Below are positions 1 to 59,002 of a stretch of 64,000 nt of DNA, piece after piece. Within the stretch, counting starts at the first letter, position 1, and the number at the start of each line of letters is the position of its first letter. Below the pieces are notes generated by a model that saw nothing but the letters and a program-made list of their open reading frames with translations, searched no databases and was not told the DNA's origin. The DNA comes from an uncultured bacterium (GTDB taxonomy: Bacteria > Babelota > Babeliae > Babelales > Vermiphilaceae). A program made the position numbers and the translations under genes. The stretch spans positions 864,001 to 928,000 of the forward strand of contig OY970172.1 in assembly GCA_963707655.1 (NCBI GenBank), read 5' to 3'.

Positions 1-457
1 AAAATCTTTAATTTCTGCTGCCATAGGAGCCATAAGCGGCTATGCTTCACTCCTTGCCTATCTGATTACTCGCTCACGCGCGATAAAAAATAGCGATCGC
101 TGGGATAGCTGGAAACAAGAAGTTCCTGTGGCAGCACTACATGAACTACCAATAACGCAAGTGGCCAACGTACTTCGCGATGCATTACACAAAAAATATA
201 ACAAGGCTGAGCCACGCGAGCTTGTATCGGCACTCGCCGATATTGAAGCAGAAAAAAACCAACTGGAGCGCCTTATTTTTTACTCTTCTTTGATAAAAAC
301 ATGCAAACTGAGCTTATTGTTTTGGTACCGAGACTCAGTGGAGGAGCTCGCAAAAAACAAACTCAAGCGACTGGAATTCATCAGAGAGTTTCTTATAACC
401 CATATGGTAAAGATTGTTGAAGGACAACCGTCTGACGCACTGGCCAATGCTGCGTAA
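1..457 (+). CDS. hypothetical protein, probably 5'-truncated by the window edge
   Basis: ORF track 128..457; the stop overlaps the start of the next gene; no recognisable motif. Confidence 0.6.
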   Translation, partial: KSLISAAIGAISGYASLLAYLITRSRAIKNSDRWDSWKQEVPVAALHELPITQVANVLRDALHKKYNKAEPRELVSALADIEAEKNQLERLIFYSSLIKTCKLSLLFWYRDSVEELAKNKLKRLEFIREFLITHMVKIVEGQPSDALANAA

Positions 458-1060: not shown

Positions 1061-1885
1061 TTGTTTATGAAAAATCTGAGAATTAAAAACACATTCATTG
1101 TTGCCACGATTTTAACACTTGGCACCAGTTTTAATGAATTCGCGCAAAACAGCGGCCCTGACGCGCAACAACAGATACACCAAGTCCTCGACAAGTATCG
1201 AATATTTTTAGACGAAGGCACCCTTGCTGGTCAAGACTGGAGCAGCTTTTCTAAACCTCCAAAAACCAGGCACTTTACCTTCAAAAGAGCCTTTGAATTA
1301 TTTGCGGAAAAGAAAGGAACTGTGATAGTTGAATTAGGAACAACTCGAAGCTTTGTGCATGGGGGGCTTATTGGATGCAATAGTGATGATGTACGGTTCT
1401 GGACCCCTGATCAACCTGAAAACTGGGATTGGGGTGCTGGCGGCTTTACCCGCATGGCAGCAGAAAGTCTTATGCATCTTAACCCAAAAATTTACACAGT
1501 CGATTTAGCAAAAAGACACATTGAGCGCTGCAAGATTATTACTGCCCCTTTTGCGCATATAATACATTACTGCGTCTGCTCATCGCTTGATTTTCTTGCT
1601 ACAACAAATCAAAGAATTGACCTATTGTATATGGATACAGGTGACATGACCCCTTTGGAGCCCACGGCGCAACTACAGCTAGCCGAAGCACAAATTATCG
1701 TTCATCGTGATTTGATAATGCCCGGCGGACTCATTTTAATTGATGATGTCAGAAATCAGACTCCCAAAAAATTTGGTGAGCAATCAGATCTGGGCAAAGC
1801 AAAATATGCACTACCCTACCTACTCGAGAATGGTTTTGAAATCGTCGAAAATGAGTACCAAGTCCTGTTACGCAAAAAACAATAA
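1061..1885 (+). CDS. class I SAM-dependent methyltransferase-like protein with signal peptide
   Basis: IVELGTTR (motif I-like), IDLLYMD and PGGLILIDD motifs; hydrophobic N-terminus ending ...NEFA. Confidence 0.75.
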   Translation: MFMKNLRIKNTFIVATILTLGTSFNEFAQNSGPDAQQQIHQVLDKYRIFLDEGTLAGQDWSSFSKPPKTRHFTFKRAFELFAEKKGTVIVELGTTRSFVHGGLIGCNSDDVRFWTPDQPENWDWGAGGFTRMAAESLMHLNPKIYTVDLAKRHIERCKIITAPFAHIIHYCVCSSLDFLATTNQRIDLLYMDTGDMTPLEPTAQLQLAEAQIIVHRDLIMPGGLILIDDVRNQTPKKFGEQSDLGKAKYALPYLLENGFEIVENEYQVLLRKKQ

Positions 1886-1930
1886 TCGAACGTCTCATAA
1901 TTGCTTTTATTTTGCCTATAGAGAGCTGTA

Positions 1931-3091
1931 ATGATAAAAACTAGTGATAATTACATAAATAAAAAATTAAAGCCAATTTTTTTTATTTTCTTCTTCTGCC
2001 TGTTTATTCAATCCCAGGCACATGGTGATTCCCATCTTACAAAAGTTCTGCATCTCAGCTTTCATTTGGGATGTATCAAGGAATTTGAAGCAGTCGCCCA
2101 CTATTTACCGATTGAGCTCACTTCTTGGTACATTCATTCAAACAGGGAGCAATTTGATGATCAAGCGGTGGGGGCTGCGATATACAACATAGGTCATGAT
2201 CGCGCAAAACGAATATGGGAGAAGAATAAAAACTATTTCAATCAGTTTGATATCATTCTTACTTCCGACACAGCCCCACTTTCTAGAATTTTCTTACAAA
2301 ATGGCTGGAAAAAACCATTGATCATATGGGTTTGTAATCGATTTGATTATGCTGATAGAGGAAGTCTTGACTGTAATTTCCCCGACAAAGAATACTACGA
2401 ACTATTCCAAAAAGCAGCTCAATTACCTAACGTAAAAATTATATCATACACTCCTTATGAACACTTTTATGCAAAAAAGAAGAACGTTCACTGGAAAGAG
2501 TGTGTCGTAAAGCCGATTGGGACGATTGAGACAGCGCTGTGGCACTCAGACGCCTCTCTAATACCTTCTTTTGTTGATCAAAAAAATACTTTTTTTGTTA
2601 ATCCTCGATTGGAATCCTGGGGCTCGCACCCGGGGCAACAATTTGATTACCTGCAAACAGAATGCGAAAGCCGCAACATCAACGTGTACATGGGAAAATA
2701 CAGCGGCCCGGAAGACATTAAAGATTTCAAAGGGATAATCTTTTTTCCCTATCAATGGTCTAATTTAGTTTTTTTTGAAAACATACAACGTGGAATTATC
2801 CATTTCGTGCCAACGATCAACTTCATCAATGCACTTAGAAAATTAAATAAACCGGTAAGCTATAATGCAGAAATACTCACAGGAAACTTTGAACTTTGTG
2901 AATGGTATATGCCGGAGCACAAAGACTTAATAGTTTATTTTGCTTCATGGGATGATTTAAAAGAGAAAATTGAAACAATCGATTATGAAGCAATGCACAA
3001 AAAAATTAAGGCTTTTGCAGAAACCCACCGAGAAAAAATGCTCACCGCATGGCAGCAGGTATTTCACCTCTTCGCCTCAAGCGGGATTTAA
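1931..3091 (+). CDS. putative glycosyltransferase (GT-B-like) with signal peptide
   Basis: 386-aa ORF in glycan cluster; C-terminal FPYQWSNLVFFENIQRG resembles a GT-B donor-binding segment; N-terminus KKLKPIFFIFFFCLFIQSQAHG. Confidence 0.5.
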   Translation: MIKTSDNYINKKLKPIFFIFFFCLFIQSQAHGDSHLTKVLHLSFHLGCIKEFEAVAHYLPIELTSWYIHSNREQFDDQAVGAAIYNIGHDRAKRIWEKNKNYFNQFDIILTSDTAPLSRIFLQNGWKKPLIIWVCNRFDYADRGSLDCNFPDKEYYELFQKAAQLPNVKIISYTPYEHFYAKKKNVHWKECVVKPIGTIETALWHSDASLIPSFVDQKNTFFVNPRLESWGSHPGQQFDYLQTECESRNINVYMGKYSGPEDIKDFKGIIFFPYQWSNLVFFENIQRGIIHFVPTINFINALRKLNKPVSYNAEILTGNFELCEWYMPEHKDLIVYFASWDDLKEKIETIDYEAMHKKIKAFAETHREKMLTAWQQVFHLFASSGI

Positions 3092-4099
3092 AAACTTATT
3101 TTTAATGCTTGGATCATTTTTATAACGGCATCGCACACATGGCGCATTGCGCGGTAAATATATAGATTTAATCTCAGGATTAAAAAAGCTGACAAAATTG
3201 GCAACGTTACTTGTGGTATGAATCAAATAATCACAGCGAGAAAGCAACAGGCATTCATAAAGTACTGGTACGCCTCCCGCAAAACCGGGCTTTTTCTTGT
3301 GCCACTCTTCGGGGTGACTGACCCAATACTGTGTATTTTCATCAATCAAATGCGGATCCTCCGTTCCAATCGCGCGAAAGGCATCAATATACAGCAACCT
3401 GCTGCCATATCTTTTTTTAAAAGCATTCATAGCTTGATGGCTATCCGATGCAAGGTAAACTTTAATATCTGCATCAGGATTTGCGTATAATAATGCATCA
3501 ACTTCTGCAAAATATTGTTCCAATGTTGGAAGACGACCACCGGGCACCTCGCGCGCGTGTCCCTTAGTAAAACGAACATGAACACCTATGCATGGAAAAC
3601 CTAGCATGTTTTTTTTATAGAAATCATCTACAACGCTAAGGATTTCTTCTTTAATGCGAATGTATTTTGTAATTTTTTCATGTAAAAATTTGCGATATGG
3701 CAAAAATTTATCGTATTCAATCCACTGTACAGAACATACCTGGTCATGGATTTCATGAAATGAACTTTGGCAAACAACATTGACCGCTCCAGCTTGCTTT
3801 GCATCGTCGGTATTGATGGGCTCGAAGTAGAGATCCCAACCATTCTCATGAATCTCATCTTTATAGGGAAAAAATTCATCCGCCCAATCAACATATACGC
3901 TTTGCATGCCCTCTTCTTCATAACGGATAAGAGCTGTAAGAACCTTTGAAAGCTCAGCAAAAAAACCTGCTCCCAAATGGGTTTTAACAACAAGATTTAT
4001 AGGATGAGAATTGACCATGTTGACATCAAGAGCATGAACACCGGAGGCACGCGCTAACAAAACTGTTAGCCCAACAAACAATATTTTTTTACTTTTCAT
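3077..4099 (-). CDS. NodZ-like (GT23-type) fucosyltransferase, copy 1, with signal peptide
   Basis: AGFF, IGVHVR, VYLASDS and LLLSRCDYLIHTTSNV fucosyltransferase motifs; signal ...ASGVHA. Confidence 0.75.
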   Translation of the reverse strand: MKSKKILFVGLTVLLARASGVHALDVNMVNSHPINLVVKTHLGAGFFAELSKVLTALIRYEEEGMQSVYVDWADEFFPYKDEIHENGWDLYFEPINTDDAKQAGAVNVVCQSSFHEIHDQVCSVQWIEYDKFLPYRKFLHEKITKYIRIKEEILSVVDDFYKKNMLGFPCIGVHVRFTKGHAREVPGGRLPTLEQYFAEVDALLYANPDADIKVYLASDSHQAMNAFKKRYGSRLLYIDAFRAIGTEDPHLIDENTQYWVSHPEEWHKKKPGFAGGVPVLYECLLLSRCDYLIHTTSNVANFVSFFNPEIKSIYLPRNAPCVRCRYKNDPSIKNKFLNPA

Positions 4100-4227
4100 A
4101 ACATTCCTTTTTTTAAACTTTTTACTTTATGAAGCGAGAAAAAATTGGCATTGCAACTATCTATTAAATGGTATATAAAACATACTTAATCGCAACTCGT
4201 ATACCATCTTACAAAAAAGGAAGTAGT

Positions 4228-5229
4228 ATGCATGCAAAAAAGCTTTTTTTATCATTCTTTCTGCTACCACTCTCACTTTACTCAAAGCAAGACATAGCTT
4301 TTAATAAAGTAGTAATCTGGGGATGGAAAATGCACAGCCATACCCACTCATATATTCATTATGCCTTTTACAAAACATTCAAACACCTTGGTTATGATAC
4401 GTATTGGTTTGATAATAAAGACGACCTTAAGGATTTTGATTTTGATAATGCTCTTTTTATAACTGAGGGACAGGTTGACCAAGACATTCCTTTACGGGAT
4501 ACCAGTTATTATATTTTGCATAATTGCCCTGATCCTAAATATAATGATTTGTTCGATAACAAACACGTACTCTTGTTAAAAGTGTATGTCCATGATGTTT
4601 TCACTAATGGACATCAAGATCTTCAAAAGCTTGATGACTATACTTATTGTTCTATGGCGGATAACGCTGTATATATGCCCTGGGCTACTGACCTTCTTCC
4701 TCATGAAATTGATGATGTAAAAGAACGGGTGAAGAAAAGCTGGGGAACAAAAAAAGAAAATATGACATATTGGATCGGGTCAACAGGCCAAGGTTATCAG
4801 GGCCCCGCCCCACAACTCGCACCTTTTATAAAAGCCTGCAAAGCGAATGGTATTGCTTTTCGAGTCGCAAAAAAACAGCATTGGCCGGGTGCTATGGACC
4901 CAGAAGAAAATCTTAATTTAATTTTCAAATCCTATCTTGCCCCCGCTATTCAATGCCAATGGCAGCTTGACCATGGCTATATCCCTTGCAGAATTTTCAA
5001 AAACATAAGCTATGGACAACTTGGCATCACTAATTCAAAAACTGTTTATGAGCTTTTTGACAAAAAGATCGTGTACAATGAGAATACCGAACAATTATTT
5101 TATGACGCGCAAGAGAGAATAAAACATCTCACTTTGCAAGAACTGCTTGACCTTATGGATTTCGTAAAAAATAAGCATACCTACATCAATCGAATTAGCA
5201 CACTATTGGAGGTATTTTCATTATTATAA
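4228..5229 (+). CDS. putative glycosyltransferase with signal peptide
   Basis: ATG 4228 after AAGGAAG; C-terminal YIPCRIFKNISYG...VKNKHTYINR resembles GT-B/CgeB-like tail. Confidence 0.6.
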   Translation: MHAKKLFLSFFLLPLSLYSKQDIAFNKVVIWGWKMHSHTHSYIHYAFYKTFKHLGYDTYWFDNKDDLKDFDFDNALFITEGQVDQDIPLRDTSYYILHNCPDPKYNDLFDNKHVLLLKVYVHDVFTNGHQDLQKLDDYTYCSMADNAVYMPWATDLLPHEIDDVKERVKKSWGTKKENMTYWIGSTGQGYQGPAPQLAPFIKACKANGIAFRVAKKQHWPGAMDPEENLNLIFKSYLAPAIQCQWQLDHGYIPCRIFKNISYGQLGITNSKTVYELFDKKIVYNENTEQLFYDAQERIKHLTLQELLDLMDFVKNKHTYINRISTLLEVFSLL

Positions 5230-5259
5230 ACATATAATTTCAAAAAATAGGAGCACACA

Positions 5260-6444
5260 ATGAAAGCACTTTCAACTATACTGACAATACTGCTACTTAC
5301 CATTTCTTTACCCTCGCAAGCTCACCAGCATTCGGCTGTCACGGTAATAGGGCTTGGACGGTTGGGATTATGTATGGCGCTTTGCTTAGAAAAGACAGGA
5401 TTTGATGTGTTGGGGGTTGATGTTATCTCTTCTTACGTAGACAGCCTTAATAAAAAAACTTTTACTTCAGACGAACCTTTCGTTACCGAATACCTAGGAA
5501 AGAGTACCCACTTTAAGGCCACTACCTCACTTGAAGAAGGAATTAATTCCTCAGACATATTTCTTATTATTGTCGATACTCCTTCAAGTCCACATGAAGC
5601 ATATGATCATTCTAAATTAAGTCGACTTTTATCAAATATTAATAAGCACAAAGTCAAAAATAAGCACATTGTGATTTGTTGCACCGTTTTCCCCGGTTAT
5701 ATCAGAAATATAGCATCTTTGCTGCTTAAAGACTGTGAAAATACTTCTATCAGCTACAATCCAGAATTCATTGCGCAGGGGAGCATCATAGATAATTTTG
5801 AACACCCTGATATGGTGCTTATCGGCGAAGGCTCTTCTGAAGTTGGCGATAGGTTGGAATCTATATATCGTAAGGTGTGTAAAAATGAGCCTAAATTTGC
5901 GCGCATGAGTGCTGACAGCGCAGAAATTGCCAAGCTTGCTATTAACTGTTTTTTAACCACAAAAATTGCCTATGCAAACATGGTTGGTGACATAGCAGAT
6001 CAAACATATGGCGCAGACAAATTTGATATTCTTAATGCGGTTGGCTCAGACTCCCGTATTGGAGCAAAATATCTTAAGCCCGGTTATGGCTTTGGCGGTC
6101 CTTGCTTCCCGCGCGATAATCGTGCCTTGGGGGCATATGCTGAGAAGATTGGTATAGAACCAACTATCCCTTGTGCGACAGATGCAGCCAACAAGGAACA
6201 CGCCTGCCATATGGCCGAAAATCTAATACGAACCAGGCAAGCGTACTATGTGTTTGAGAATGTAAACTACAAGGATAATTGCCCCGTGATTATTATAGAA
6301 GAATCTCAAAAACTTGCCGTTGCTGAAATCTTGGCAAAAAAAGGACACAAGGTTTTGATTAGGGACCGGACTGAAGTTGTTCATGCGGTTCAAGAAAAAT
6401 ATGGTTTTTTGTTTGAGTATGAGATTATTGAAGAGGTGAATTAG
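5260..6444 (+). CDS. UDP-glucose/GDP-mannose dehydrogenase family protein (short C-terminal domain) with signal peptide
   Basis: VIGLGRLG Rossmann motif, [23 protein letters not shown] catalytic Cys motif; signal ...LPSQA; RBS GGAG. Confidence 0.85.
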
Positions 6445-7345
6445 GTTTTTTTGCTCTGACAAGCATATGCCAACCTATTTCTGATTCAAGCTCTGCAAAG
6501 AGATCATCTGCTATATCCTTAAAGCAATCTTCTTTTTCATATTCGTATTGTATATATTTTTGAACGTTCCAGGGAAAAATATGTGCTTTGCGTATATCCA
6601 GGATTTCAAAATCTGAGAATAATCTTTTTGCGCCTTCTAACGTATAGGAATACGTTATAGGGCAGCCTGTTTGTGCTTCAGAGTAAGATGAAATAAGTTC
6701 ATCTAGTTTACTAAAATCCCATACTCCCGTTTCTTTCATCAAATTAAAGAGCTTATAACTGATTTTGGAATAAACCATCATTCTTATCTCGCCATCACTT
6801 TTGAGTAATTTTTTGCACTGTTTTAGAATTTTTTCAGGATGAGGGCTATGATGAATAACACCAAATGACCATACGAGATCAAACTGTTCTCCCTCAGGGA
6901 GCAATTGATCAAGCTCTTCTGCGTTGCCTAAAATAAAATTTGCTTCTAATCCATATACGGCAAATCTTTGCTTTGTCAGGGCCAAACTTTCTTTGGACAA
7001 TTCAATCACCGTCAATTTGGCGCCGTGCCGTGCAAAGTTTGTTGCCTCGGTTCCTATGCCGCAGCCAATTTCTAATACTGATTTCCCTTTCCATTTTTCA
7101 AACTCAGCAAAAGCGGGGATATGAGGTTCAATAAAATGTTTTCTTTTCTCTACTTCATCAAAATACTCGCGCGTTCCAACCGTTTTATTCGAATGGCGTA
7201 CGTTACAAGGGCGCCTATCCCAGAATTCTTTTACTTTATCAATAGAAACAGCCGAAAAATCTTGGCATTGCAATGGGGTCAAGACAATTGAGCTGCATAG
7301 AGCGCAGAGTAAAGATTTTAATTTTTTCATCGTATTTGCTTGCAT
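6425..7345 (-). CDS. class I SAM-dependent methyltransferase with signal peptide
   Basis: VLEIGCGIG motif [21 protein letters not shown]. Confidence 0.85.
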
Positions 7346-7459
7346 TGTCTACAGTCCTCAACGGATATTTTTAATAACATAAATTCAATAGTTACTTTCT
7401 AGCATGTCGTGCGGTTTTTTGCAAACGAGAGGTTTGCTGAAAGCTTAAAACTCAACAGC

Positions 7460-7488
7460 TTGACATAAATTCTATGCCTTATTATGTT
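7460..7488 (+). promoter_or_regulatory. putative sigma70 promoter for the second NodZ-like gene
   Basis: TTGACA (7460-7465), 17-nt spacer, TATGTT (7483-7488). Confidence 0.5.
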
Positions 7489-7544
7489 ACCCTTTGCGTC
7501 CCAAATTTCTTATATGAGCAACATCGCCCACAAAAAAAGGAAGA

Positions 7545-8564
7545 TTGATGATTGTACGACTCATTAAATTGTTATGTCTCCTTTTCTTAATAACCCATTC
7601 GTTAATATTACATCCATACGGCTCTATAAATCTTGTCGTTAAAACTCAGGTAGGAGCAGGTTTTTTTTCTGAGTTTTTAAAAGTCGTGGGATCTATTATT
7701 CATTATGAAGATGAAAGAGTTAATAGCGCGTGTGTCGACTGGACAAATCAGTTTTGTCCCTATAAGGACGATCCGCATGAAAATGGCTGGTGTCTTTACT
7801 TTGATCCTATTCATATGGGGAAAGAGGATAATACAGCTTCCCTTTCAAAAAACCATACCCTTGAGATTTGTGATGTGGTGCCTCCCGGAGTTCATCAATA
7901 CTATTGCAATGAACAGTTCATCAAGTACGATAAGTTTTTGCCATGTCGTAATTTTGTACATGAGAAAATTATGAAATACATTTATATTAAAAAAGAAATT
8001 CTTAATTTTGTTGATGATTTTTATAAGCAAAATATGCAAGGCTGTATCTGTATAGGTGTCCACTGCAGACATTCTTGGGCTCACGCCTGCGAAGTTCCTG
8101 GCCGTCAACTGCCAACATTACAAGAATATTTTTCAGAAATTGATGCATTATTATACGCAAATCCTGATGCAGATATTAAAATTTATATTGCATCGGATAG
8201 CCATCAAGCTATGAACGCTTTCAAAGAGAGATATGGCAGCAGATCATTGTGTATTGATGCATTTCGATCGGGCGAGAGAGAAGAGGCACATGTGATTAGT
8301 GCAAATACTTCATATTGGATAAACAATCCTGAGGAGTGGCATAAGAAGAAGCCTGGTTTTGCTGGAGGAGTTACAGTACTTTACGATTGCTTATTGCTTT
8401 CCCGTTGTGATTATCTTATCCATACGACAAGTAATCTCGCTACCGCCTCTACCTTTTTTAATCCTGATATTAAGTCTATATATTTGCCCCGTACTGCGCC
8501 ATGCGTGAGCTGTCATGAAAATTACGATTCAAGGAATCTCAAAAATAAATTTTTAAAACCCTAA
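7545..8564 (+). CDS. NodZ-like fucosyltransferase, copy 2, with signal peptide
   Basis: Collinear paralog of 3077..4099 (IGVHCR, IYIASDS, LLLSRCDYLIHTTSN). Confidence 0.75.
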   Translation: MMIVRLIKLLCLLFLITHSLILHPYGSINLVVKTQVGAGFFSEFLKVVGSIIHYEDERVNSACVDWTNQFCPYKDDPHENGWCLYFDPIHMGKEDNTASLSKNHTLEICDVVPPGVHQYYCNEQFIKYDKFLPCRNFVHEKIMKYIYIKKEILNFVDDFYKQNMQGCICIGVHCRHSWAHACEVPGRQLPTLQEYFSEIDALLYANPDADIKIYIASDSHQAMNAFKERYGSRSLCIDAFRSGEREEAHVISANTSYWINNPEEWHKKKPGFAGGVTVLYDCLLLSRCDYLIHTTSNLATASTFFNPDIKSIYLPRTAPCVSCHENYDSRNLKNKFLKP

Positions 8565-8808
8565 GACTCTGCGAACAAAAAAAGGAGCATAATGAATGAA
8601 TATTATATTTCCTAAAGTAGATGCAAATTGGTTTTAAAAAATTCGGGCGGAAAAGGCTCTTTGGACTATGCCGGATAGGCTCCGATCAGTGCGTCTAGCA
8701 TTATTTTTCATTTAATGATAATGAAAGTTGCTCTAGCGATGGATTAATCGTTGCGAAGAAAAACGGGGTTCTGGGCGCTGAGCAGATCTCGATTAGAAAA
8801 TAGTGATG

Positions 8809-9648
8809 TTATTTTTTGAAAAGCATCTCTGCCGAGGTCCAATGAGGCAATGGTTTGTGCCAAAACGGAATATAATAAACAATGCCCTCCGATAAAAGTC
8901 CCGCGGCATAACTGAAAGAACTGCGACCTGTGACCAAAACATCGGCAAGGACCATAGCAGTAAATGCATCTTCCACAGATTCATTGAGATGCAAGATTAT
9001 ATCGTGAGCAATAAATGCGTTAAAATCTTCGCTTTTTCCTTGTGAAATAAGATGAATCAGAAGATCTTGCGAAGCATGGATTTTTCTTAATTGTGTAATA
9101 ATATCCAGAAAAAGTTGTTTCGGTGTATTGGCACCTTCTATGCGGTTGTCGTGGGGATTTGGTCTTCTCACATGAATAACAATATTGAAACTTTCATTGT
9201 TAAAATAATTGTTTCTATTTTTATTGGCTCTAAAAATTTTTCTTATTTTCTTTAAAGATAAGCTATTTGCGCATTCAGCAACATTCGCATCAAAAAATGC
9301 CTTGTAACCAGCATTGTTAGAATTTATACGACCCTCATTAACCTCAAAGTTATCTATAAAATTAACGAGCCATTCTTTTTTCGCTATGAAACAGGGGTCA
9401 GCATCATAATTGTGTTCCATTTCTTTAAATGGCGTGTAAACAAATTTCTTATTATTTAATTCAGCGTAAACGACAGATGCTATAATTTCTTGAAATTGAG
9501 AGCCAAAACCATCTGATTGTTTATGATTCGTTACAACTTCTTCGGATCTGGAATCAATTAAGCACTCACTGTATTGTTGCCACCCTAAAGTGCTTACAAT
9601 CCCCAATAGACACACATCCAACAAAGCGATTTTCATGCACAGGATCAT
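8809..9648 (-). CDS. putative fucosyltransferase-fold (GT11/GT23-like) glycosyltransferase with hydrophobic N-terminus
   Basis: DGFGSQFQ, IVIHVRR, ADVLVTGRSSFSYAAG motifs. Confidence 0.6.
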   Translation of the reverse strand: MILCMKIALLDVCLLGIVSTLGWQQYSECLIDSRSEEVVTNHKQSDGFGSQFQEIIASVVYAELNNKKFVYTPFKEMEHNYDADPCFIAKKEWLVNFIDNFEVNEGRINSNNAGYKAFFDANVAECANSLSLKKIRKIFRANKNRNNYFNNESFNIVIHVRRPNPHDNRIEGANTPKQLFLDIITQLRKIHASQDLLIHLISQGKSEDFNAFIAHDIILHLNESVEDAFTAMVLADVLVTGRSSFSYAAGLLSEGIVYYIPFWHKPLPHWTSAEMLFKK

Positions 9649-9660
9649 TTCTGTTTTTAT

Positions 9661-10404
9661 CTATTTTCTCATCTCTGCATGGTTTTTATCCAAAGCCAAT
9701 AATCGTTTATGATAAGGCAATTTCCAGCTTTCCGGATAACAATAGGAAGGATTTAAAATTACCGTAGGTGGGTTATCGATAAAATAACGGTTCAAATGGC
9801 TTTCATCGTGCCACACAGCCACCACCCCATTCTCAAGATCTTCGTTGATATTGGTCAACATAGTATGTACCAATTTCAAGAATTCTTTCGAATTGCCTCC
9901 ATGAAATCCACCGGCAAAATAATATTTTCCTTCATCGGGGGCAACATGGGCATTTGACTCAGATCTTGTTTCATAGGTGCCTCTCTTGCCTACAAAGCCG
10001 GGGTGTATGGTGGCAACACGCTCTCCCAAAATTTCATCCCCAACCGTATCTACAAACAACATATCTGCATCCAACGCGAAGAGATAATCCATATCATCAA
10101 ACATATCCCGATATTGATAGTAGGCAGCGCATCTCATCATAGTATCATAGGGCCAACCCAAGCGCGTATGCGGTAGACATACAATATCATCAGCCGCCGG
10201 CAATGAACCGTCAGTAAAAACAAAGTAAGTTATTGTATGATCAGGACAAAAATGCTTTCGAGCAGACTCAACAAGGGGAGGAACAAAATTAATATATTTT
10301 CCGGTAGCCACAACCAATAATCCCACATTGTATTGTGCTGAATTACTGGTTAAAATAATCATGTTCAGCAATAACAAGCCCGCTATTTTTACTATTTTAA
10401 TCAT
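9661..10404 (-). CDS. GT6 (ABO blood-group/alpha-1,3-Gal/GalNAc transferase family) with signal peptide
   Basis: ATGKY, YFVFTD, WPYDTMMR, DADM, YFAGGFHGG, WHDESHLNRY and LNPSYCYPE are GT6 motifs; ATG 10404 just after the gmd stop. Confidence 0.9.
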   Translation of the reverse strand: MIKIVKIAGLLLLNMIILTSNSAQYNVGLLVVATGKYINFVPPLVESARKHFCPDHTITYFVFTDGSLPAADDIVCLPHTRLGWPYDTMMRCAAYYQYRDMFDDMDYLFALDADMLFVDTVGDEILGERVATIHPGFVGKRGTYETRSESNAHVAPDEGKYYFAGGFHGGNSKEFLKLVHTMLTNINEDLENGVVAVWHDESHLNRYFIDNPPTVILNPSYCYPESWKLPYHKRLLALDKNHAEMRK

Positions 10405-10405
10405 G

Positions 10406-11572
10406 TTATCGTTCCTGGCTAGACAATGTCTTAAATTCATTTCGCAATTTTAAGGCGGCACATTCTGCTCGCACCATCTCTTTGACAAGTTCTTGAAAGC
10501 CTGTTTTTGGCTCCCATTCCAACACACGCCTCGCCTTTGAAGCATCTCCTAGCAAAAAATCAACTTCTGCTGGTCTAAAATATCTCGGATCAATAAAAAT
10601 TAAATCTTTTCCCGTCTGCACATCATAACCTACTTCATTTACCCCGGAACCACGCCATGCAATGGCAATACCAACCTGGCCAAAAGCTAACTCGACAAAT
10701 TCTCGTACCGAATGAGCTTGCCCGGTAGCTATCACAAAGTCATCAGGCACGTCTTGCTGCAACATAAGCCACATAGCCTCAACGTAATCAGCCGCATATC
10801 CCCAATCGCGCATTGCGTCCAAATTACCAAGATATAAAGCATCACGCAGGCTCAGGCTGATAGATACGGCAGCCTGCACTATTTTTTTGGTGACAAATGT
10901 TTCTCCCCGATAAAATGATTCATGATTGAATAAGATGCCGTTTACCGCAAACATTCCATATGCTTCGCGATAATTCCTGGTGATCCAATAAGCATACAAT
11001 TTTGCAACTCCATAGGGAGAGCGAGGATAAAAAGGGGTTGTTTCTTTTTGAGGAATTTCTTGTACTTTGCCAAACATCTCACTGCTAGATGCTTGATAAA
11101 ATTTTGCTTTATTTGTTAATCCGGTAATGCGTATCGCCTCTAAAAGAGACAGTGCGCCGAGCCCATCAACCATGCCAGTATACTCAGGCAGCTCAAATGA
11201 AACTTTAACATGACTTTGCGCTCCAAGATTATAAATCTCGTCTGGTTGAATTTGCTGCAATAAGCGAATCATGTTTGATGTATCAGTCAGATCACCGTAA
11301 TGCAAAAAAAAGCGAACATCTCCACCCTCGTGCTGATCACGATATAGATCATCAATACGCGCAGTATTAAAAGATGAAGAACGTCGCTTAATGCCGTGCA
11401 CCTCATAGCCTTTATTCAAAAGAAATTCTGTCAACAGGCGCCCATCCTGTCCGGTGATGCCGGTAATTAATGCCTTTTTACGAATTTTTTTTGCCGCGCA
11501 ATCATCTTCAGCACGAGAAGAATTACCTACTAAAAAACACGACAAGAGCAAAAGATGTACTATTTTTATCAC
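10406..11572 (-). CDS. gmd: GDP-mannose 4,6-dehydratase with N-terminal signal-peptide extension
   Basis: [50 protein letters not shown]. Confidence 0.97.
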
Positions 11573-11577
11573 TAAAT

Positions 11578-12579
11578 CTACTCTTGAGAAAAAATATTAT
11601 TTTGTCTACACCATTCTACTGTTTTTTTAATGCCTTCAGCCAACCCTGTTTGTGCCTGCCAACCCAACGCGGTAAGTTTATCCACATTAAGCAGTTTTCG
11701 AGGTGTACCATCCGGCCTTGATCTGTCAAAAACAAGCTCACCTTCAAAACCAACGGCCTCTTTAATAAGTTCTGCGGCTTCTCTGATAGTCACATCCTTG
11801 CCCACGCCTACATTCACCAATGAAGACCCTTCATAATGATTCATTAAAAAAACAGCCCCACTAGCAAGATCATCGACATATAAAAATTCACGATACGGAT
11901 TACCACTACCCCATATTGTTACCTCTCTGGCATCATCTCTCTTTGCCTGAATCATCTTTGCAATCAAAGCGGGTAATACATGGGACGTTTGCAAGTCAAA
12001 ATTATCATGTGGCCCATATAAATTAGTCGGCATACACGCAATAAAATTGGTGCCATATTGGCGATTATAAGCTTCACACGATTTCAAGCCTGCTATTTTG
12101 GCAATGGCATAAAATTCATTGCTTTTTTCAAGCTCACTGGTCAGTAAGTATTCTTCCTTGATCGGTTGCTCACAATTGCGAGGATAAATGCAGGAAGAAC
12201 CCAAGAAAAGAAGTTTTTTTATCTTATGCAGATATGAAGCATGAATAACGTTTGCTTCTATCATCATATTGTCATAAATAAATTGAGCCGGGTAATCAAT
12301 ATTTGCCTGAATGCCACCCACTTTTGCAGCGGCTAGAAAAACATATTCCGGTTTTTCTTTTTCAAAAAAAGTATTCACCGCTCCTTGATCACGCAAATCA
12401 AGCTCTTGGGAAGAAGCTGTTATAATGTCTGAATAGCCCCCTTCTTGAAGACAGCGGACGATAGCACGACCAACCAACCCTGTGTGACCCGCTACATATA
12501 TTTTTGAATCTTTTTGCATGATACTTTTTACATGAGCAATGGGTAGCAAGCAAAGTATCAAAAAAATAATTTTTTTCAT
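11578..12579 (-). CDS. fcl: GDP-L-fucose synthase with N-terminal signal-peptide extension
   Basis: [59 protein letters not shown]. Confidence 0.97.
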
Positions 12580-12593
12580 AACTGTTTTTCCTT

Positions 12594-13415
12594 TTATGTG
12601 ATAAAAAGTTTTTCAAGAGAATCGTATGCTTTTTTGCCCCTTATTTCCTGCTCCAGCTGTATTTGAAAAGACCGATTGGTTGCCCGATCCCCAATGGGAT
12701 TGCTCCGGTTATAGATATAAAGAATGTCTTCTATGTAACGCGAATGATTGCCCGCCATCTCAAGCATGGGGAACATGAAAGCCAGATCCCATGTCATTGG
12801 AAAAAATGCATTGTTATAAAGCAAGTCTTCTTTGTTAATTAATTTAAATAGACGGGCATAGAATGTGCGCAAATGAGTGGTAACCCACGGATAACGCCGG
12901 TAAGATTTGCTCTCGATTATCGATTGTGGCAATGCGTGAATCCATGGATCGCGAGTGTTTGCGGGCCAAGACACATAACTGCCGTAGGTAATCCATACAT
13001 TGGGGTCTGTATATTCGTGATTAAGTGTTGTAAGCACTTTGTTATGTGCAAACCAATCATCACCATCAAGCGTTACTATGATAGCTGTATCGGGACAGGA
13101 ATGAATGGCATTATAAAGATTTTCCAAAGCCCCACACCGCTGCATATTGTTAATCAAAATCACTTTATGGCCACGAGGATGAGTTTTGATTAAGGTTACC
13201 ATTAAATCATAGGTGCGGTCCGCTGAACAATCATTGATGTAAACAATGTGATAATTATCGTAATCTTGCTCCAGAGCAGAAAGAAGATTTTTCTCGCACC
13301 ATTGCTCATTATTATATGAGGGAATAATAACTACAAAATACAGCTGTTGAGCCGTCAATGGTCTGAAAAAAATAATTGTGAGCAAAATTATTAGTATTGA
13401 TCTTATGTTCTTCAT
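12594..13415 (-). CDS. GT2 family glycosyltransferase with signal peptide
   Basis: VVIIPSYNN, YINDCSAD, TLDGDDW. Confidence 0.9.
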   Translation of the reverse strand: MKNIRSILIILLTIIFFRPLTAQQLYFVVIIPSYNNEQWCEKNLLSALEQDYDNYHIVYINDCSADRTYDLMVTLIKTHPRGHKVILINNMQRCGALENLYNAIHSCPDTAIIVTLDGDDWFAHNKVLTTLNHEYTDPNVWITYGSYVSWPANTRDPWIHALPQSIIESKSYRRYPWVTTHLRTFYARLFKLINKEDLLYNNAFFPMTWDLAFMFPMLEMAGNHSRYIEDILYIYNRSNPIGDRATNRSFQIQLEQEIRGKKAYDSLEKLFIT

Positions 13416-13422
13416 TTTCTTG

Positions 13423-14313
13423 CTATCGGCTTATAAAACTAAATTCATATTCCATGTGCGCCCCTTTATTATCAATTTTATGTAAGGGAGCACTATCAAT
13501 TTTTAATCCTTTTTCAAACAACTCAAGCATCTCTTTTGTGGATAAACCCTGCATATTACGATTATTCACGTATTCCTGTTGTGTCAAATTTAGGGGTACA
13601 TTAACTATCTTACTGTGCCTGAAACAAAGGCCTTTTTTGTTACCAACCAATTTTGCTTGCCGAGCCCATGCTCCCTCCAAAGAATTTGGCGCTCGATAGG
13701 GTAAAGAGCAAATGGTGTCTATAATATCTGATTTTTTGTACAAGGTCATATCAACGGTGTTTGGGTATCCCCAATCATACTTGCCGTCTCCCAAGGTCCA
13801 GCACACAATTTCATGGGCAATGGGAGTGAGTGGCGGTAATGGTTGCTTGCAGTTAAGCATATAGCATTCGGTTAAATTAAGACCGAGACGAAAGTAAAAA
13901 CCATAAGCTCCCGCATATTGCAACACTTCAATGCAGCGCTGCAGATCGATTGCATCAGTAACTATAATGTCATCCACCGCAAAAAGTATGTAATTATTCT
14001 TTGACGAGAGCAAAAAAGACTCTGTGATAGGCTTAAAATCTTTTTGCGGCTCATTCCCCTGCCGACAAAAAACAACCTTATCAAAATCTTCTTTAACAGA
14101 TTGATACGATTGCTCAAAGCGCTCATCGCTTGCGCGATAAACAACACAGATATTTTCAGCTCCCGTTACGTACTGCTCAACCGATTCCAGCAATGCATAA
14201 AGCTGCATGGGGCGGTCATACGAAAAAATAATTAAATCAGTTTTATCATCGGTTTTATTAGTGGCAAACGAACAGAATAATAAAAAAAGAACAGTGATTT
14301 TTCTTACAAACAT
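13423..14313 (-). CDS. putative GT-A fold glycosyltransferase with signal peptide
   Basis: LIIFSYDRPMQLYALLES and YILFAVDDI (DXD-like); cluster context. Confidence 0.65.
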   Translation of the reverse strand: MFVRKITVLFLLFCSFATNKTDDKTDLIIFSYDRPMQLYALLESVEQYVTGAENICVVYRASDERFEQSYQSVKEDFDKVVFCRQGNEPQKDFKPITESFLLSSKNNYILFAVDDIIVTDAIDLQRCIEVLQYAGAYGFYFRLGLNLTECYMLNCKQPLPPLTPIAHEIVCWTLGDGKYDWGYPNTVDMTLYKKSDIIDTICSLPYRAPNSLEGAWARQAKLVGNKKGLCFRHSKIVNVPLNLTQQEYVNNRNMQGLSTKEMLELFEKGLKIDSAPLHKIDNKGAHMEYEFSFISR

Positions 14314-14343
14314 AATACCAATCTCTCTTTTAGAAAAACATTA

Positions 14344-15723
14344 TTACGCGCCGGGCTGCCCCAATTTATAGCATACAATAGGTTTTTTACGTGTCGCTTG
14401 CGTAAGGCGAACAACATCTCTCATATCAATAATTATTGGGTCAACCATATACTCACTAACTGTTGCATAATCAAATGCTTTAAATTCTTGCCACTCGGTG
14501 AGTATGACCAGTGCATCAGCCTGCTCAATCGCTTGCTCTTTTGTTTGGCAATATTCAATGGAAGGTAGAACTTTTTTCATATTGCTCATCGCAATAGGAT
14601 CGTATGCTTTAACATGAGCACCCATGCTTAAAAGCGAGGTGATAATGTAAATGGCAGGGGCGCTGCGCACGTCGTCAGTATTTGCTTTAAAGGCTAACCC
14701 CCAAATTGCTATGGTTTTGTTTTTAAGATCATTACCACAAAAGTCGCAAACCTTGCGAACAACATACATCTTTTGATGGTAATTTGCTTCTACAGATGCC
14801 GTAATAATGCGCAAGGGCGACCCCAACTCTTCTCCTTTTTTCATCAAGGCGAGCGCGTCTTTGGGAAAACATGATCCGCCAAATCCTGGACCGGGAACAA
14901 GAAACTTATTGCCTATTCGTTTGTCGAGCCCCATACCCTTGGCCACATCAGTAATATTGGCTCCTGATTTATCGCACAGTTGCGCTATCTCATTAATGTA
15001 AGCAACTTTGACCGCGAGAAAAGCGTTTGAAGCGTACTTTATAGTTTCCGCCGATGCAAGGTCCGTGTGCAAGACTGGAATGTTTTTTACTAACAATGGA
15101 GCATACAGAGAATGGAGAACGTGCGCATCATCTTCTGATTCTGCTCCTATAATTATGCGATCGGGATTGAAAAAATCATGTACGGCGAATCCTTCTCGCA
15201 AGAATTCAGGATTAGAGATCACCCGCACGTCAAAAGCGCTCTCGTGTTCTTGTATTATAGACATGATTCGAGCGCTCATGCCAATAGGTAATGTACTTTT
15301 GATACAGACCGTTTTGTTACCGTTAAGATTCATGCCAATGGTATTTGCAACAGCCTCAACTGCTGAAATATCAGCAGACCCATTAGGACCAGCGGGTGTC
15401 CCCACTGCTATGAAAACAACGTCTGATTGTTGAATTGCTCGACCAATATCATCAGTAAAAAATAATCTTGCAGCTTCTGTATTTTTTTGAACCAGTTCAG
15501 GCAATTCAGGCTCAAAGATAGGCATTTCTCCACGCTGCAGCTGTGCAATCTTTGCCGCATCAATATCAGCGCAATAGACAGTATGGCCAAGATCAGCCAG
15601 ACAAGCGCCCAAAACAAGACCAACGTAACCCGTTCCTATAACCGCAACATGCTGCTTGTCATCTGCGTGCAGAAAAAACGAGCAAACAAGCAATAGGGCT
15701 ACGATTAATATTCTCTTCTTCAT
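14344..15723 (-). CDS. ugd: UDP-glucose 6-dehydrogenase with N-terminal signal-peptide extension
   Basis: VAVIGTGYVG, IAVGTP, SNPEFLREG, GPGFGGSCFPKD, GLAFKANTDDVR; signal MKKRILIVALLLVCSFFLHA. Confidence 0.93.
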   Translation of the reverse strand: MKKRILIVALLLVCSFFLHADDKQHVAVIGTGYVGLVLGACLADLGHTVYCADIDAAKIAQLQRGEMPIFEPELPELVQKNTEAARLFFTDDIGRAIQQSDVVFIAVGTPAGPNGSADISAVEAVANTIGMNLNGNKTVCIKSTLPIGMSARIMSIIQEHESAFDVRVISNPEFLREGFAVHDFFNPDRIIIGAESEDDAHVLHSLYAPLLVKNIPVLHTDLASAETIKYASNAFLAVKVAYINEIAQLCDKSGANITDVAKGMGLDKRIGNKFLVPGPGFGGSCFPKDALALMKKGEELGSPLRIITASVEANYHQKMYVVRKVCDFCGNDLKNKTIAIWGLAFKANTDDVRSAPAIYIITSLLSMGAHVKAYDPIAMSNMKKVLPSIEYCQTKEQAIEQADALVILTEWQEFKAFDYATVSEYMVDPIIIDMRDVVRLTQATRKKPIVCYKLGQPGA

Positions 15724-15793: not shown

Positions 15794-16315
15794 TCAGAGT
15801 TCAAAATCTTTGTACATCAAGCTCGGCTGTACACCGCGATTATCCTGATATTTGTTGCTCGCATAATGAATGTAATCACCTTCTATGGTGTGGTAGAAAA
15901 TCTGACACAATTCAACTTCAGGATAAATTTTTATTGGCTGCACACAAAACATTTCAAGCGTCCAGAAGCCACTAAAACCCACGTCGCCAAAACCGGCAGT
16001 TATGTGAATAAATAAACCGAGCCGCCCGACTGATGAACGCCCTTCAAGCATGGGTACACACGCAAGTGTCTTGGTGTACTCGATAGTGCGACCCAAATAC
16101 AAAACACCGGGCTGAAGCAGCATGCCTTCTTTGGGAATCTCTATTTTTCTCACTTCATTCTTCTTTTTCATATCAAGAACTGAATCTTCATAGACAAGCA
16201 ATTCATTATGCAGTCTGAGATTGTAAGAATTAGGACCAAGCTGCTTCTCATTAAAGGGCTCAATAAGAATATCTGAGCCAAGCCTGCGTTTAATTTCTTT
16301 GCCAGAAAGAATCAT
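15794..16315 (-). CDS. dcd: dCTP deaminase
   Basis: MILSG, GPNSYNLRL, EGRSSVGRLG, TAGFGDVGFSGFWTLE, KYQ. Confidence 0.93.
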   Translation of the reverse strand: MILSGKEIKRRLGSDILIEPFNEKQLGPNSYNLRLHNELLVYEDSVLDMKKKNEVRKIEIPKEGMLLQPGVLYLGRTIEYTKTLACVPMLEGRSSVGRLGLFIHITAGFGDVGFSGFWTLEMFCVQPIKIYPEVELCQIFYHTIEGDYIHYASNKYQDNRGVQPSLMYKDFEL

Positions 16316-16435: not shown

Positions 16436-17449
16436 ATGAAGAGCATGATCGAACACAATCAGACAAAAAGTCCGCTGCTTAACCCAATCATAGATCAAAT
16501 CAAACAAGAGAGCGTACGCTTTCAAAAACTTACCGGCGAAGTTGGCAAGGTTGTTGTTGGGCAAGAAGAAACGTTACATTTCATTCTCATTGCCATTTTA
16601 TGCAACGGCCACATTCTTCTTGAAGGAGTTCCCGGCGTTGCAAAAACAACTATGATTAAAGCGATGACGCGCGCATTGGGATTAAAATTCAATCGAATTC
16701 AATTCACTCCTGATTTACTGCCGGCAGACTTGATCGGAACACTGATATATAATCCAAAAACACTTGATTTTGAAACAAAACAAGGTCCCATTTTTGCAAA
16801 TCTTATTCTTGCCGATGAAATCAATCGTGCTCCAGCCAAGGTGCAATCAGCACTACTTGAATCAATGCAAGAGCAACAAGTTACTATCGGATCAAGCACG
16901 TTCTCTCTGGACAGACCTTTTTTGGTTTTTGCAACACAAAACCCCATTGAACAAGAAGGAACGTATCGTTTGCCCGAGGCGCAAGTTGACCGTTTTATGT
17001 TTAAACTCTTGGTAAAATATCCCAGCTTTCAGCAAGAAAAAGCCATTGTACAGCGCCAATTGCACGAACCAACAATTTATCCCATACTCACCAAAGATGA
17101 CATACATGCCGCTCAAGCATTGGTGAACTCTGTTCATGTTGATGAAAAAATTAGCGACTATATTTTACATATTATTTTTGCAACGCGAGAGCCGGAAAAA
17201 TACAAGCTCAAGGAATTAAAGCCATTTATTCAGCATGGGGTTTCTCCTCGGGCAAGCTTGGCCATGCATCAGGCCGCACGCGCACAAGCATTCTTGAAAC
17301 AGCGCCATTTCGTTATTCCCGATGACGTAAAAGAAGTTGCTTATAACACCCTTGCCCATCGCGTGTTGTTAACGTATGCAGCAGAGGCGGAAGAAGTAAC
17401 GCCGCACGCCCTTATTTCAAAAATATTAAATGCTGTGCCAACCCCATAA
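16436..17449 (+). CDS. MoxR family AAA+ ATPase
   Basis: GHILLEGVPGVAKT, RIQFTPDLLPAD, ADEINRAPAKVQSALL, ATQNPIEQEGTYRLPEAQVDRF. Confidence 0.95.
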   Translation: MKSMIEHNQTKSPLLNPIIDQIKQESVRFQKLTGEVGKVVVGQEETLHFILIAILCNGHILLEGVPGVAKTTMIKAMTRALGLKFNRIQFTPDLLPADLIGTLIYNPKTLDFETKQGPIFANLILADEINRAPAKVQSALLESMQEQQVTIGSSTFSLDRPFLVFATQNPIEQEGTYRLPEAQVDRFMFKLLVKYPSFQQEKAIVQRQLHEPTIYPILTKDDIHAAQALVNSVHVDEKISDYILHIIFATREPEKYKLKELKPFIQHGVSPRASLAMHQAARAQAFLKQRHFVIPDDVKEVAYNTLAHRVLLTYAAEAEEVTPHALISKILNAVPTP

Positions 17450-18663: not shown

Positions 18664-18668
18664 CCACG

Positions 18669-23304: not shown

Positions 23305-23314
23305 TAAATAGCCC

Positions 23315-37641: not shown

Positions 37642-37672
37642 TTTATAGTAAAAAAAGAAAGAGGTATAAAAA

Positions 37673-40554: not shown

Positions 40555-40631
40555 CAATTTTTATTTTTATTGATATTCTACAACATAGCTAATCCCTTTG
40601 ATAAACAATGCAGAATACATACAGGAAGACG

Positions 40632-58788: not shown

Positions 58789-59002
58789 GGCATCCCCTTT
58801 TAGTTTTCTCTGGTACTTTTCCCTCTCTGTAGCATATGAATTTGGTGAACAAATAATCAATGGTTTTTTGCGAAATTTGTATGTCAGTAGTGGTTTTACT
58901 CATGTGGTCTCGATATCATGAGCGTGTGGCGTGATTTGAGTGATTCGATCGAGGTCGGAGTGTTGCGCTAAGGGTCTTCTTAATAGCTCTTTCTATGGTG
59001 AG

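Follow-up and report, generated by a model that had tools for sequence, protein, structure and literature searches.

In the textbook account, bacterial nucleotide-sugar chemistry is all cytoplasmic, hence the need for lipid carriers and flippases. The gmd-fcl genes of enterobacterial colanic-acid and O-antigen loci encode signal-less, cytoplasmic enzymes, and the glycan is assembled on undecaprenyl phosphate, flipped (Wzx/Wzy), and ligated. In the eukaryotic Golgi, the GT6, FUT8/GT23, and POFUT-type enzymes are membrane proteins of type II, and the synthases are cytosolic, with transporters delivering the donors. Here we describe a cluster of 14 open reading frames (ORFs) from an uncultured bacterium (contig OY970172.1), at positions 1061 to 15723 of a 64,000-nucleotide stretch that we call the window, in which an entire set of glycan enzymes appears to bear Sec-type signal peptides. 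Glycogen enzymes of Chlamydia trachomatis are described as being secreted into the inclusion lumen, where host UDP-glucose is used (Gehre et al. 2016, PMC4829429), and a Chlamydia PGM with a type 3 signal has been described (PMC9251005). In the phylum Dependentiae, the genome descriptions give signal peptides on 79 of 126 ankyrin proteins of Babela massiliensis, with a type II secretion system (T2SS) as the only secretion system found (PMC4378268), and on 44% of the coding sequences of Chromulinavorax destructans, with no lipopolysaccharide (LPS) genes found (PMC6561590). The secreted set in these descriptions comprises ankyrins, proteases, nucleases, ubiquitin/SUMO-related proteins, and ORFans (PMC4378268, PMC6561590).

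The window corresponds to bases 864001 to 928000 of a closed one-contig genome of 1,091,075 bp (GC content, 41.3%; marker completeness, 88.6%), whose gene content fits the Dependentiae: TLC transporters, no LpxC, a GspC/GspD/PilM/secretin block, and ankyrin ORFs. Our preferred interpretation, to which we assign a probability of about 45%, is that all enzymes of the cluster are exported by Sec and act in the periplasm or cell envelope on host-derived metabolites. Export is favored because the signals must be translated and are conserved in relatives, the signal state of Gmd co-varies with that of Fcl, some genomes hold signal-bearing and signal-less Gmd paralogues together, and ManC, GalE-type enzymes, and the carrier-lipid machinery that was searched for are missing. 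The first-pass annotation of this DNA had proposed export and work outside the bacterial cytoplasm, for example in the host with host cofactors. Comparative evidence strongly supports the core of this, export and work outside the cytoplasm on host-derived substrates; the site may be the periplasm or the host. The 14 ORFs, identified by Pfam, NCBIfam, and fold searches, are as follows (window coordinates).

1061 to 1885, plus strand: MT-A, a putative S-adenosylmethionine (SAM) methyltransferase; N-terminus MFMKNLRIKN-TFIVATILTLGTSF.
1931 to 3091, plus strand: unk2, no family; signal-like IFFIFFFCLFI, then QSQA, with the likely cleavage point before HG.
3077 to 4099, minus strand: NodZ-1, GT23-type fucosyltransferase-like; signal MKSKKILFVGLTVLLARASGVHA, predicted mature start LD; PF05830, 43.9 bits (cutoff, 28.3).
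4168 to 5229, plus strand: unk4; probable start M21 at 4228; signal MHAKKLFLSFFLLPLSLYS, predicted mature start KQ.
5260 to 6444, plus strand: Ugd2, a nucleotide-sugar dehydrogenase paralogue; TIGR03026, 239 bits (cutoff, 189.8).
6425 to 7345, minus strand: MT-B, a class I SAM methyltransferase; Methyltransf_11, 69 bits; signal-like N-terminus.
7545 to 8564, plus strand: NodZ-2, a NodZ-1 paralogue; probable start M2 (MIVRLIKLLCLLFLITHSLIL); PF05830, 38.0 bits (cutoff, 28.3).
8809 to 9648, minus strand: unk8, by predicted fold a third fucosyltransferase-like protein; no Pfam model.
9661 to 10440, minus strand: GT6 family glycosyltransferase; probable start M13 at 10404; MIKIVKIAGLLLLNMIILTSNSA, predicted mature start QY; PF03414, 162.1 bits (cutoff, 25).
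10406 to 11572, minus strand: Gmd, GDP-mannose 4,6-dehydratase; GTG start; TIGR01472, 574.8 bits (cutoff, 415).
11578 to 12579, minus strand: Fcl, GDP-L-fucose synthase; Pfam Epimerase, 209 bits; signal-like N-terminus; Met21 at the ancestral start.
12594 to 13415, minus strand: GT2 glycosyltransferase; signal MKNIRSILIILLTIIFFRPLTA, predicted mature start QQ; PF00535, 65.9 bits.
13423 to 14313, minus strand: unk13, a GT-A fold glycosyltransferase; invariant DD (D114 D115); signal MFVRKITVLFLLFCSFA, predicted mature start TN.
14344 to 15723, minus strand: Ugd1, UDP-glucose 6-dehydrogenase-type; signal MKKRILIVALLLVCSFFLHA, predicted mature start DD; TIGR03026, 465 bits (cutoff, 189.8).

Signals were called with our own heuristic and by eye. 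The heuristic required a K/R-bearing n-region, an 8-residue core with a Kyte-Doolittle mean of at least 2.3, and an uncharged stretch of 9 to 32 residues. All 14 consecutive ORFs start with a basic-then-hydrophobic segment, as had been noted at first reading, 13 of them clearly and unk8 weakly. The heuristic flagged 13 and missed unk8 (8809 to 9648) owing to an Asp in the stretch (h-region); 25 of 26 aligned unk8 homologues have a hydrophobic N-terminus. K/R residues lie N-terminal to the hydrophobic stretch in 13 of the 14, and unk8 has a single K (MK-). Of the 13 flagged proteins, 10 have an uncharged stretch of 11 to 18 residues; for Ugd2, GT6, and NodZ-2 the value is 24 to 31 and takes in part of the mature domain. 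The true transmembrane (TM) anchor of GspC, for comparison, measures 26, and a Sec-type h-region takes up ~7 to 15 residues, less than a TM span. Small residues occupy positions -3 and -1 in 12 of the 14, as judged by eye, which makes a plausible cleavage site, and NodZ-2 and unk8 have no clean cleavage motif. An RR pair was found in none of the 14 N-termini, which bears out the earlier statement that twin-arginine motifs are absent, and neither was a lipobox (L-x-[GAS]-C). In polarity and length, the segments fit cleavable Sec signals, not anchors.

The extensions of Gmd, Fcl, and the two Ugd proteins are real additions when aligned with their families, whose profiles begin at residues 24 to 35: profile positions 1 to 3 (Pfam, NCBIfam) fall at residues 32 to 35 of Gmd, 24 to 27 of Fcl, 25 of Ugd1, and 26 to 27 of Ugd2. 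The neighboring dcd and moxR genes had been described as lacking an extension, and neither product was flagged. More broadly, the heuristic flagged 0 of 16 housekeeping-family proteins in the window (enolase, TruA, a GTPase, S6, RNase HII, FtsY, an MTS methylase, MutL, an amine oxidase, AspRS, Nfo, IF-2, NusA, an HhH-GPD glycosylase, Dcd, and MoxR), as opposed to 13 of the 14 cluster proteins (hand-computed Fisher test, ~1e-7, for operon genes that are not independent of one another).

Are these N-termini actually made? Between the hydrophobic stretch and the Rossmann GxGxxG there is no in-frame ATG, GTG, or TTG in Gmd, Ugd1, or Ugd2. The first-pass annotation had named translation from downstream starts as a way in which the extensions might never be produced; Gmd, Ugd1, and Ugd2 hold no codon for it, and of these three and Fcl, only Fcl does, at M21. 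The longest-ORF rule did overextend three other genes, whose starts were moved to M21 in unk4 (4228), M13 in GT6 (10404, 1 nt past the Gmd stop), and M2 in NodZ-2. Shine-Dalgarno (SD)-like AGGAG or AAGGA motifs precede the signal-including starts of six genes; AAGGA lies upstream of the NodZ-2 start. When the signal-including starts are used, gaps of 30, 7, 14, 5, 1, and 12 nt remain between the seven minus-strand genes that run from Ugd1 to unk8. Because Gmd, Ugd1, and Ugd2 have no alternative start, SD-like motifs are present, and spacings of 1 to 30 nt arise only with these starts, the predicted N-terminal signals of the cluster must be translated. We give almost no weight to the idea that the extensions are start-codon artifacts that are never made. 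It draws on the three overextended ORFs, but their corrected starts still yield signal-like N-termini; the reading frames of Gmd, Ugd1, and Ugd2 already contradict it, and the hydrophobic character kept over divergent sequence in dozens of genomes and the absence of such a segment from all 16 housekeeping genes also speak against it.

The comparative sample comprised 121 genomes of the phylum, with orthologues of Fcl in 51, Ugd1 in 52, and unk13 in 49. Signal-like extensions proved to be lineage-wide on Fcl, Gmd, Ugd1, and unk13. By the heuristic, they were present on Fcl in 28 of 35 genomes, on 28 of 37 Gmd ORFs from 33 genomes, on 25 of 30 Ugd1 proteins (several of the negatives being signal-like by eye), and on 20 of 25 unk13 proteins. 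The extensions cannot be aligned between genera, and the mature N-termini are conserved. This pattern shows the predicted signals to be conserved across the phylum as a physicochemical trait while their sequence diverges, and we take them to be under selection.

The signals are also coordinated between the pathway partners Gmd and Fcl. Among 31 loci holding both genes, Fcl and Gmd both had a signal in 23 and both lacked one in 4; a single, ambiguous locus was discordant (signal on Gmd, none on Fcl), and both types of Gmd accompanied a signal-bearing Fcl in 2 loci and a signal-less Fcl in 1. The signal state thus agrees in 27 of 28 informative loci, a count to be read as a pattern and not as a statistical test, the genomes of relatives not being independent. 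Genomes G003, G062, and G013 each encode one signal-bearing and one signal-less Gmd. In a quick, unrooted IQ-TREE phylogeny of Gmd, with the long-branch row L028_p_363 kept in, seven of the eight signal-less copies fell into one clade (SH-aLRT, 97). The signal label changed 5 times on this tree, versus a shuffle mean of 7.4, and 8 to 10 of 500 shuffles were equally low; these counts, too, describe a pattern. Beyond the pathway partners, 95 of 126 ORFs in eight larger glycan islands of relatives were signal-like. Of the 52 island ORFs that resemble cluster proteins, 44 were signal-like, ManC and a GalE-like epimerase among them. The signal-like island ORFs also include the G003 orthologues of MT-A, GT6, unk2, unk4, and NodZ-1.

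The rest of the genome was searched for precursor synthesis. Gmd and Fcl are its only PF01370 proteins; neither has a separate signal-less copy, and this family provides no GalE-type epimerase. ManC gave no tblastn match in the genome with the ManC of relatives as the query. The sole NTP_transferase is a signal-less UTP-glucose-1-phosphate uridylyltransferase-like (GalU-like) protein (genome positions 269742 to 270605), besides which there are two signal-less PGM/PMM genes. Membership in GT6 presumably implies a UDP-Gal/GalNAc-type donor. With no ManC and no GalE-type epimerase among the families searched, precursors must come from the host. The pathway had been called complete at first reading; the cluster does encode conversion and transfer of sugars, but no synthesis of GDP-mannose or of a UDP-Gal/GalNAc-type donor. 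The genome has three TLC nucleotide transporters, no match to the GT1 family (PF00534), no signal-less Leloir transferase of the GT1 or GT2 type, and four GT2 matches, all signal-like. Apart from the cluster, two tandem GT2-containing proteins of ~500 amino acids (aa) with signal-like N-termini are encoded at genome positions 100707 to 103772; the second (102216 to 103772) has a lipobox-like LLAC and an unk13-like domain and may be an extracytoplasmic lipoprotein glycosyltransferase.

With the families searched, a carrier-lipid route of assembly was not found either. LpxC, Wzy_C, Bac_transf (WbaP-type), and PMT_2 (GT-C) had no match in the genome, PF00953 had a single one, presumably MraY, and the best match to the Wzx/MOP family PF01943 reached 23.7 bits, below the cutoff. 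The statement that wzx, wzy, and an initiating transferase are missing from the cluster extends, for the families searched, to the genome, where Wzx has only the subthreshold match. That match could be a flippase, which would suit a model in which uncleaved anchors or inefficient signals keep the enzymes on the cytoplasmic face as a metabolon and the product leaves by an unrecognized route. Such a model, which we consider improbable, would also accommodate the cytoplasmic GalU-like gene, the general expectation that cofactor-dependent enzymes are cytoplasmic, and the lack of a clean cleavage motif in NodZ-2 and unk8. However, the N-terminal K/R of 13 of the 14 proteins would, by the positive-inside rule, place the C-terminal domain outside, and stretches of mostly 11 to 18 residues are too short for a stable span such as the 26-residue GspC anchor. 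Nor does the genome hold a cytoplasmic source of GDP-mannose, and an initiating transferase, a ligase, and an LPS acceptor were not found in it. The coexistence of signal-less and signal-bearing Gmd in three genomes further implies two locations.

The family assignments vary in strength. Gmd scores above the TIGR01472 equivalog cutoff, with profile positions 1 to 338 aligned over residues 32 to 370. Fcl reaches 471.9 bits on NF047922, narrowly under the equivalog cutoff of 500, with full profile coverage (2 to 304); judging from this match, it is a protein that works like Fcl, strict equivalog membership being narrowly missed. Ugd1 and Ugd2 pass the TIGR03026 subfamily model and fall under every equivalog cutoff (e.g., TuaD, 497 versus 700), and we infer their substrates from the subfamily match. 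GT6 scores 200.7 bits on NCBIfam NF041524, under the cutoff of 250. Only the C-terminal half of the PF05830 profile aligns with NodZ-1 and NodZ-2. The MT-A matches to Pfam FtsJ and Methyltransf_24 are below the cutoffs.

For MT-A, unk2, NodZ-1, unk4, NodZ-2, unk8, and unk13 there was no NCBIfam family, and phmmer searches with unk2, unk4, unk8, and unk13 against PDB sequences gave no meaningful match. The unk8 family has at least 224 homologues, the named members all being Babeliaceae, Babeliales, or Dependentiae. The AlphaFold (AF2) model of unk8 (pLDDT, 89) had NodZ, AtFUT1, FUT8, and POFUT1 as its best Foldseek matches (E values, 2e-5 to 1e-3; TM scores, 0.4 to 0.5), and we therefore regard unk8, by predicted fold only, as a Dependentiae-restricted fucosyltransferase-like family and the third such enzyme of the cluster. 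The AF2 model of unk13 (pLDDT, 88) matched POMGNT1, GnT-I, SpsA, and TarP (E values, 5e-8 to 1e-5). G003 has orthologues of MT-A (66% identity), unk2 (44%), and unk4 (50%), the latter two also signal-like. The language-model look-alikes of unk4, phage glycosyltransferase clusters, provide no more than a lead.

Under our preferred interpretation, the toolkit would make GDP-fucose (Gmd and Fcl) and would also hold two nucleotide-sugar dehydrogenases and two methyltransferases. Its transferases would be three fucosyltransferase-like enzymes together with those of the GT6, GT2, and GT-A types, with at least one more GT2 upstream of the window. Every member would bear a Sec-type signal peptide, probably cleaved by signal peptidase I, pass through the inner membrane, and act in the periplasm or envelope of an LPS-less, host-dependent cell. 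Outside the inner membrane, host NAD(P)(H) and SAM would serve in the conversion of host GDP-mannose and UDP-sugars. All of these would arrive as ATP must, ATP being needed in the periplasm by the inner-membrane TLC transporters; since ATP must reach that space, nucleotide cofactors and sugars of similar size plausibly can too. Without a lipid carrier, a flippase, or a ligase, the sugars would go directly onto acceptors that are secreted or part of the envelope, to give a fucosylated, methylated, uronic-acid-containing surface glycan. If a whole toolkit is tagged for export in this way, the rule of cytoplasmic nucleotide-sugar chemistry would be broken, and an energy parasite would have a new means of drawing on the metabolite pools of its host. 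Such export might also account for the way in which Dependentiae, lacking LPS, decorate their surface or their niche in the host.

A wider version of this proposal treats the space outside the inner membrane as a bacterial "Golgi," in which Leloir transferases work beside Gmd, Fcl, Ugd, and SAM methyltransferases and a complex fucosylated glycan is placed directly on envelope proteins, again without carrier lipid, flippase, or ligase. ManC and a GalE-like epimerase would join them in relatives, and host metabolites would leak in through the outer membrane. We put this forward tentatively, at somewhat short of an even chance. If this is true, LPS-type surface chemistry would have a substitute throughout the phylum, and a periplasmic nucleotide-sugar metabolism would be known for the first time.

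Several considerations weigh against export to a site outside the inner membrane. The presence of the required metabolites there is something that we infer. Sec exports unfolded chains, so that Gmd would have to bind NADP+ after export, and stoichiometric NAD+ (for Ugd), NADPH (for Fcl), and SAM (for the methyltransferases) would be needed outside. Cofactor-dependent enzymes usually take the twin-arginine (Tat) route, yet RR is absent from all 14 proteins. No acceptor was identified in the analysis. The signal-less GalU-like gene implies a cytoplasmic UDP-glucose pool for which no consumer was identified, and this could hint at cytoplasmic use. The Cys content of signal-bearing and signal-less forms is alike (means of 2.2 versus 3.0 for Gmd, P = 0.17; 6.4 versus 6.0 for Fcl, P = 0.72) and so gives no compositional sign of another compartment. 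DsbA (PF01323) had no match in the genome, a result from which, other thiol-oxidase families not having been searched, we draw no conclusion. The genome background is high: at the first start, our heuristic flags 326 of 963 ORFs of at least 100 aa, and of the 620 ORFs that reach 200 aa it flags 193 without further TM segments. It also gives false positives such as CTP synthase. For these last reasons, the weight of the argument lies in which enzymes carry the segment and not in how many do.

A final point on the same side is that, by our own reading, 22 of 26 signal-bearing Fcl orthologues retain a Met at the ancestral start, from which a cytoplasmic isoform of Fcl could be made. The retained Met sits just past the predicted cleavage site; it could be vestigial, be kept for structural reasons, or serve for internal initiation. 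In the last case, proteins might have a dual location, the upstream start giving an exported form and the internal Met a cytoplasmic one, as Met21 of Fcl in the present genome would allow. The databases differ on exactly such starts: the Fcl of G003 (L005) is 311 aa in NCBI and 330 aa with the signal in ENA/Logan/IMG, and a Gmd of another relative (L008, G028) is 354 aa in NCBI and 372 aa with the signal in ENA/Logan/IMG. We nevertheless consider dual localization very improbable. Here, a cytoplasmic Fcl would be left without substrate, since an internal start is lacking in Gmd, Ugd1, and Ugd2, and such a Met is absent from most signal-bearing Gmd orthologues. Of 26 Fcl ORFs, 19 have an SD-like 4-mer before an upstream start and 3 have one before the internal Met; this favors the upstream start weakly, given that the best of several upstream starts was used and that SD motifs are little used in this group. 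The trait may be hidden by homology-guided start calling, which trims the signal where there is an internal Met, and may have gone unremarked for that reason.

The surroundings of the cluster bear on where exported enzymes would go. The flanking genes are as follows (window coordinates).

1 to 457, plus strand: 3' part of an ORF of 242 aa that starts upstream, at genome position 863729; signal-like N-terminus; no Pfam family.
15794 to 16315, minus strand: dcd, no N-terminal extension.
16436 to 17449, plus strand: moxR, no N-terminal extension.
17569 to 25981, plus strand: gspC (T2SSC and PDZ), gspD (N0 and secretin), a PilM-like gene, a small ORF, and a second secretin.

The secretins, of 812 and 888 aa, lie on either side of the PilM-like gene and after the GspC-like gene, and only the first has a GspD-type N0 domain; this block might provide a way out through the outer membrane. 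On the other side, the signal-tagged block continues upstream of the window with another GT2 gene (genome positions 862264 to 863085), followed by two small signal-like ORFs, one of which reaches into window positions 1 to 457. The export machinery of the genome includes two Peptidase_S26 (signal peptidase I) genes, FtsY, GspC/GspD, and a single intact ATPase of the T2SS type. PF00437 also matches, in two frames, a second ATPase gene of the T2SS/T4P type (genome positions 764698 to 765845), which has internal stops; it adjoins a pseudopilin-like gene (763439 to 763933) and may be a pseudogene or reflect a sequencing error. Conserved linkage of the glycan locus to T2SS genes was considered and rejected, since gspC and gspD, like dcd and moxR, had no tblastn match in 101 loci of relatives.

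The main alternative, an unlikely one in our estimation, is onward secretion: the exported enzymes would also cross the outer membrane, through the T2SS or in vesicles, as is presumed of the signal-tagged ankyrin proteins, and act in the host vacuole or cytosol, where they would remodel host glycoconjugates or build a glycan from host nucleotide sugars. The host cytosol certainly holds all of the cofactors and donors. The GT families involved, GT6 and the GT23/FUT8- and POFUT-like fold, have a prominent place in eukaryotes, and GspC/GspD lie 1.8 kb from the cluster. Signal peptides are a general export tag of the lineage and the usual tag of its presumed host-directed proteins, going by 13 of the 17 ankyrin-repeat ORFs of this genome, which are signal-like, and by what the Babela and Chromulinavorax papers describe (PMC4378268, PMC6561590). 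Chlamydia offers a precedent, as its glycogen enzymes are described as acting in the vacuole on host UDP-glucose (PMC4829429). On the other hand, there are at least 14 enzymes and their transferase content varies between genomes, which points to surface-glycan diversity and not to an effector set. Co-secreted enzymes would be diluted in the host, for which no acceptor can be named. The T2SS neighborhood is not conserved, and the second T2SS-type ATPase gene is interrupted by stops. We therefore retain action in the periplasm or envelope as the preferred interpretation; cultured members of the phylum (Babela, Chromulinavorax, and Vermiphilus) make the case directly testable.

Other proteins of this genome have similar N-termini. 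A 390-aa protein (genome positions 96420 to 97592) has a signal-like N-terminus followed by GxGxxG and is of cofactor type and apparently export tagged. Within the window, a GNAT acetyltransferase (PF00583; 27419 to 28000) with an N-terminal hydrophobic segment of ~20 residues looks membrane anchored or exported. Tandem small proteins of ~175 to 205 aa (36459 to 39325 and 40608 to 41222) share similar signal-like N-termini (MNKQFLTILxLSC..), and some members have further predicted TM segments. An eukaryote-like WD40 beta-propeller protein (44538 to 46697), a clostripain-type C11 peptidase (57274 to 58860), and an M16 peptidase (60977 to 63733), all signal-like by eye or heuristic, are candidate host-directed or periplasmic proteins.

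Compared with the colanic-acid gmd-fcl loci, the cluster has orthologous Gmd and Fcl, likewise clustered with GT2 and other transferases. It differs in that all of its enzymes appear to bear signals and in that the searches here turned up no ManC, no WbaP/WecA-type initiator, no clear Wzx, no Wzy/WaaL, and no lipid A synthesis. With the Golgi it would share Leloir transferases of the same family or fold, noncytosolic catalytic domains, and an N-terminal hydrophobic targeting segment. Here, however, the synthases themselves are signal tagged, and the segments look like cleavable bacterial signals and not signal anchors. In the literature that we searched, nucleotide-sugar enzymes of Dependentiae with signal tags were not described, and there was nothing relevant on GDP-fucose, signal peptides, and the periplasm combined.

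The published Dependentiae secretome concerns the same phylum, with signals on 44% of the Chromulinavorax coding sequences versus 31 to 34% of ORFs here by a cruder heuristic. It shares signal-tagged ankyrins, a T2SS/secretin as the only exit route described, the lack of LPS genes, and nucleotide parasitism. The published descriptions differ in making no mention of nucleotide-sugar synthases, glycosyltransferases, or methyltransferases, which their supplementary tables could list. Chlamydia, as described, is also obligately intracellular, places secretion signals on housekeeping enzymes of sugar metabolism, and makes an extracytoplasmic glycan from a host nucleotide sugar. It belongs to another phylum, however; its signals are type 3 and not Sec, its product is the homopolymer glycogen and not a fucosylated, methylated heteroglycan, and the interconversion enzymes Gmd, Fcl, and Ugd are not involved in the system described. 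By analogy, and on these published descriptions, the concept closest to this cluster is Chlamydia's secreted glycogen pathway, and the closest setting is the published Dependentiae secretome.

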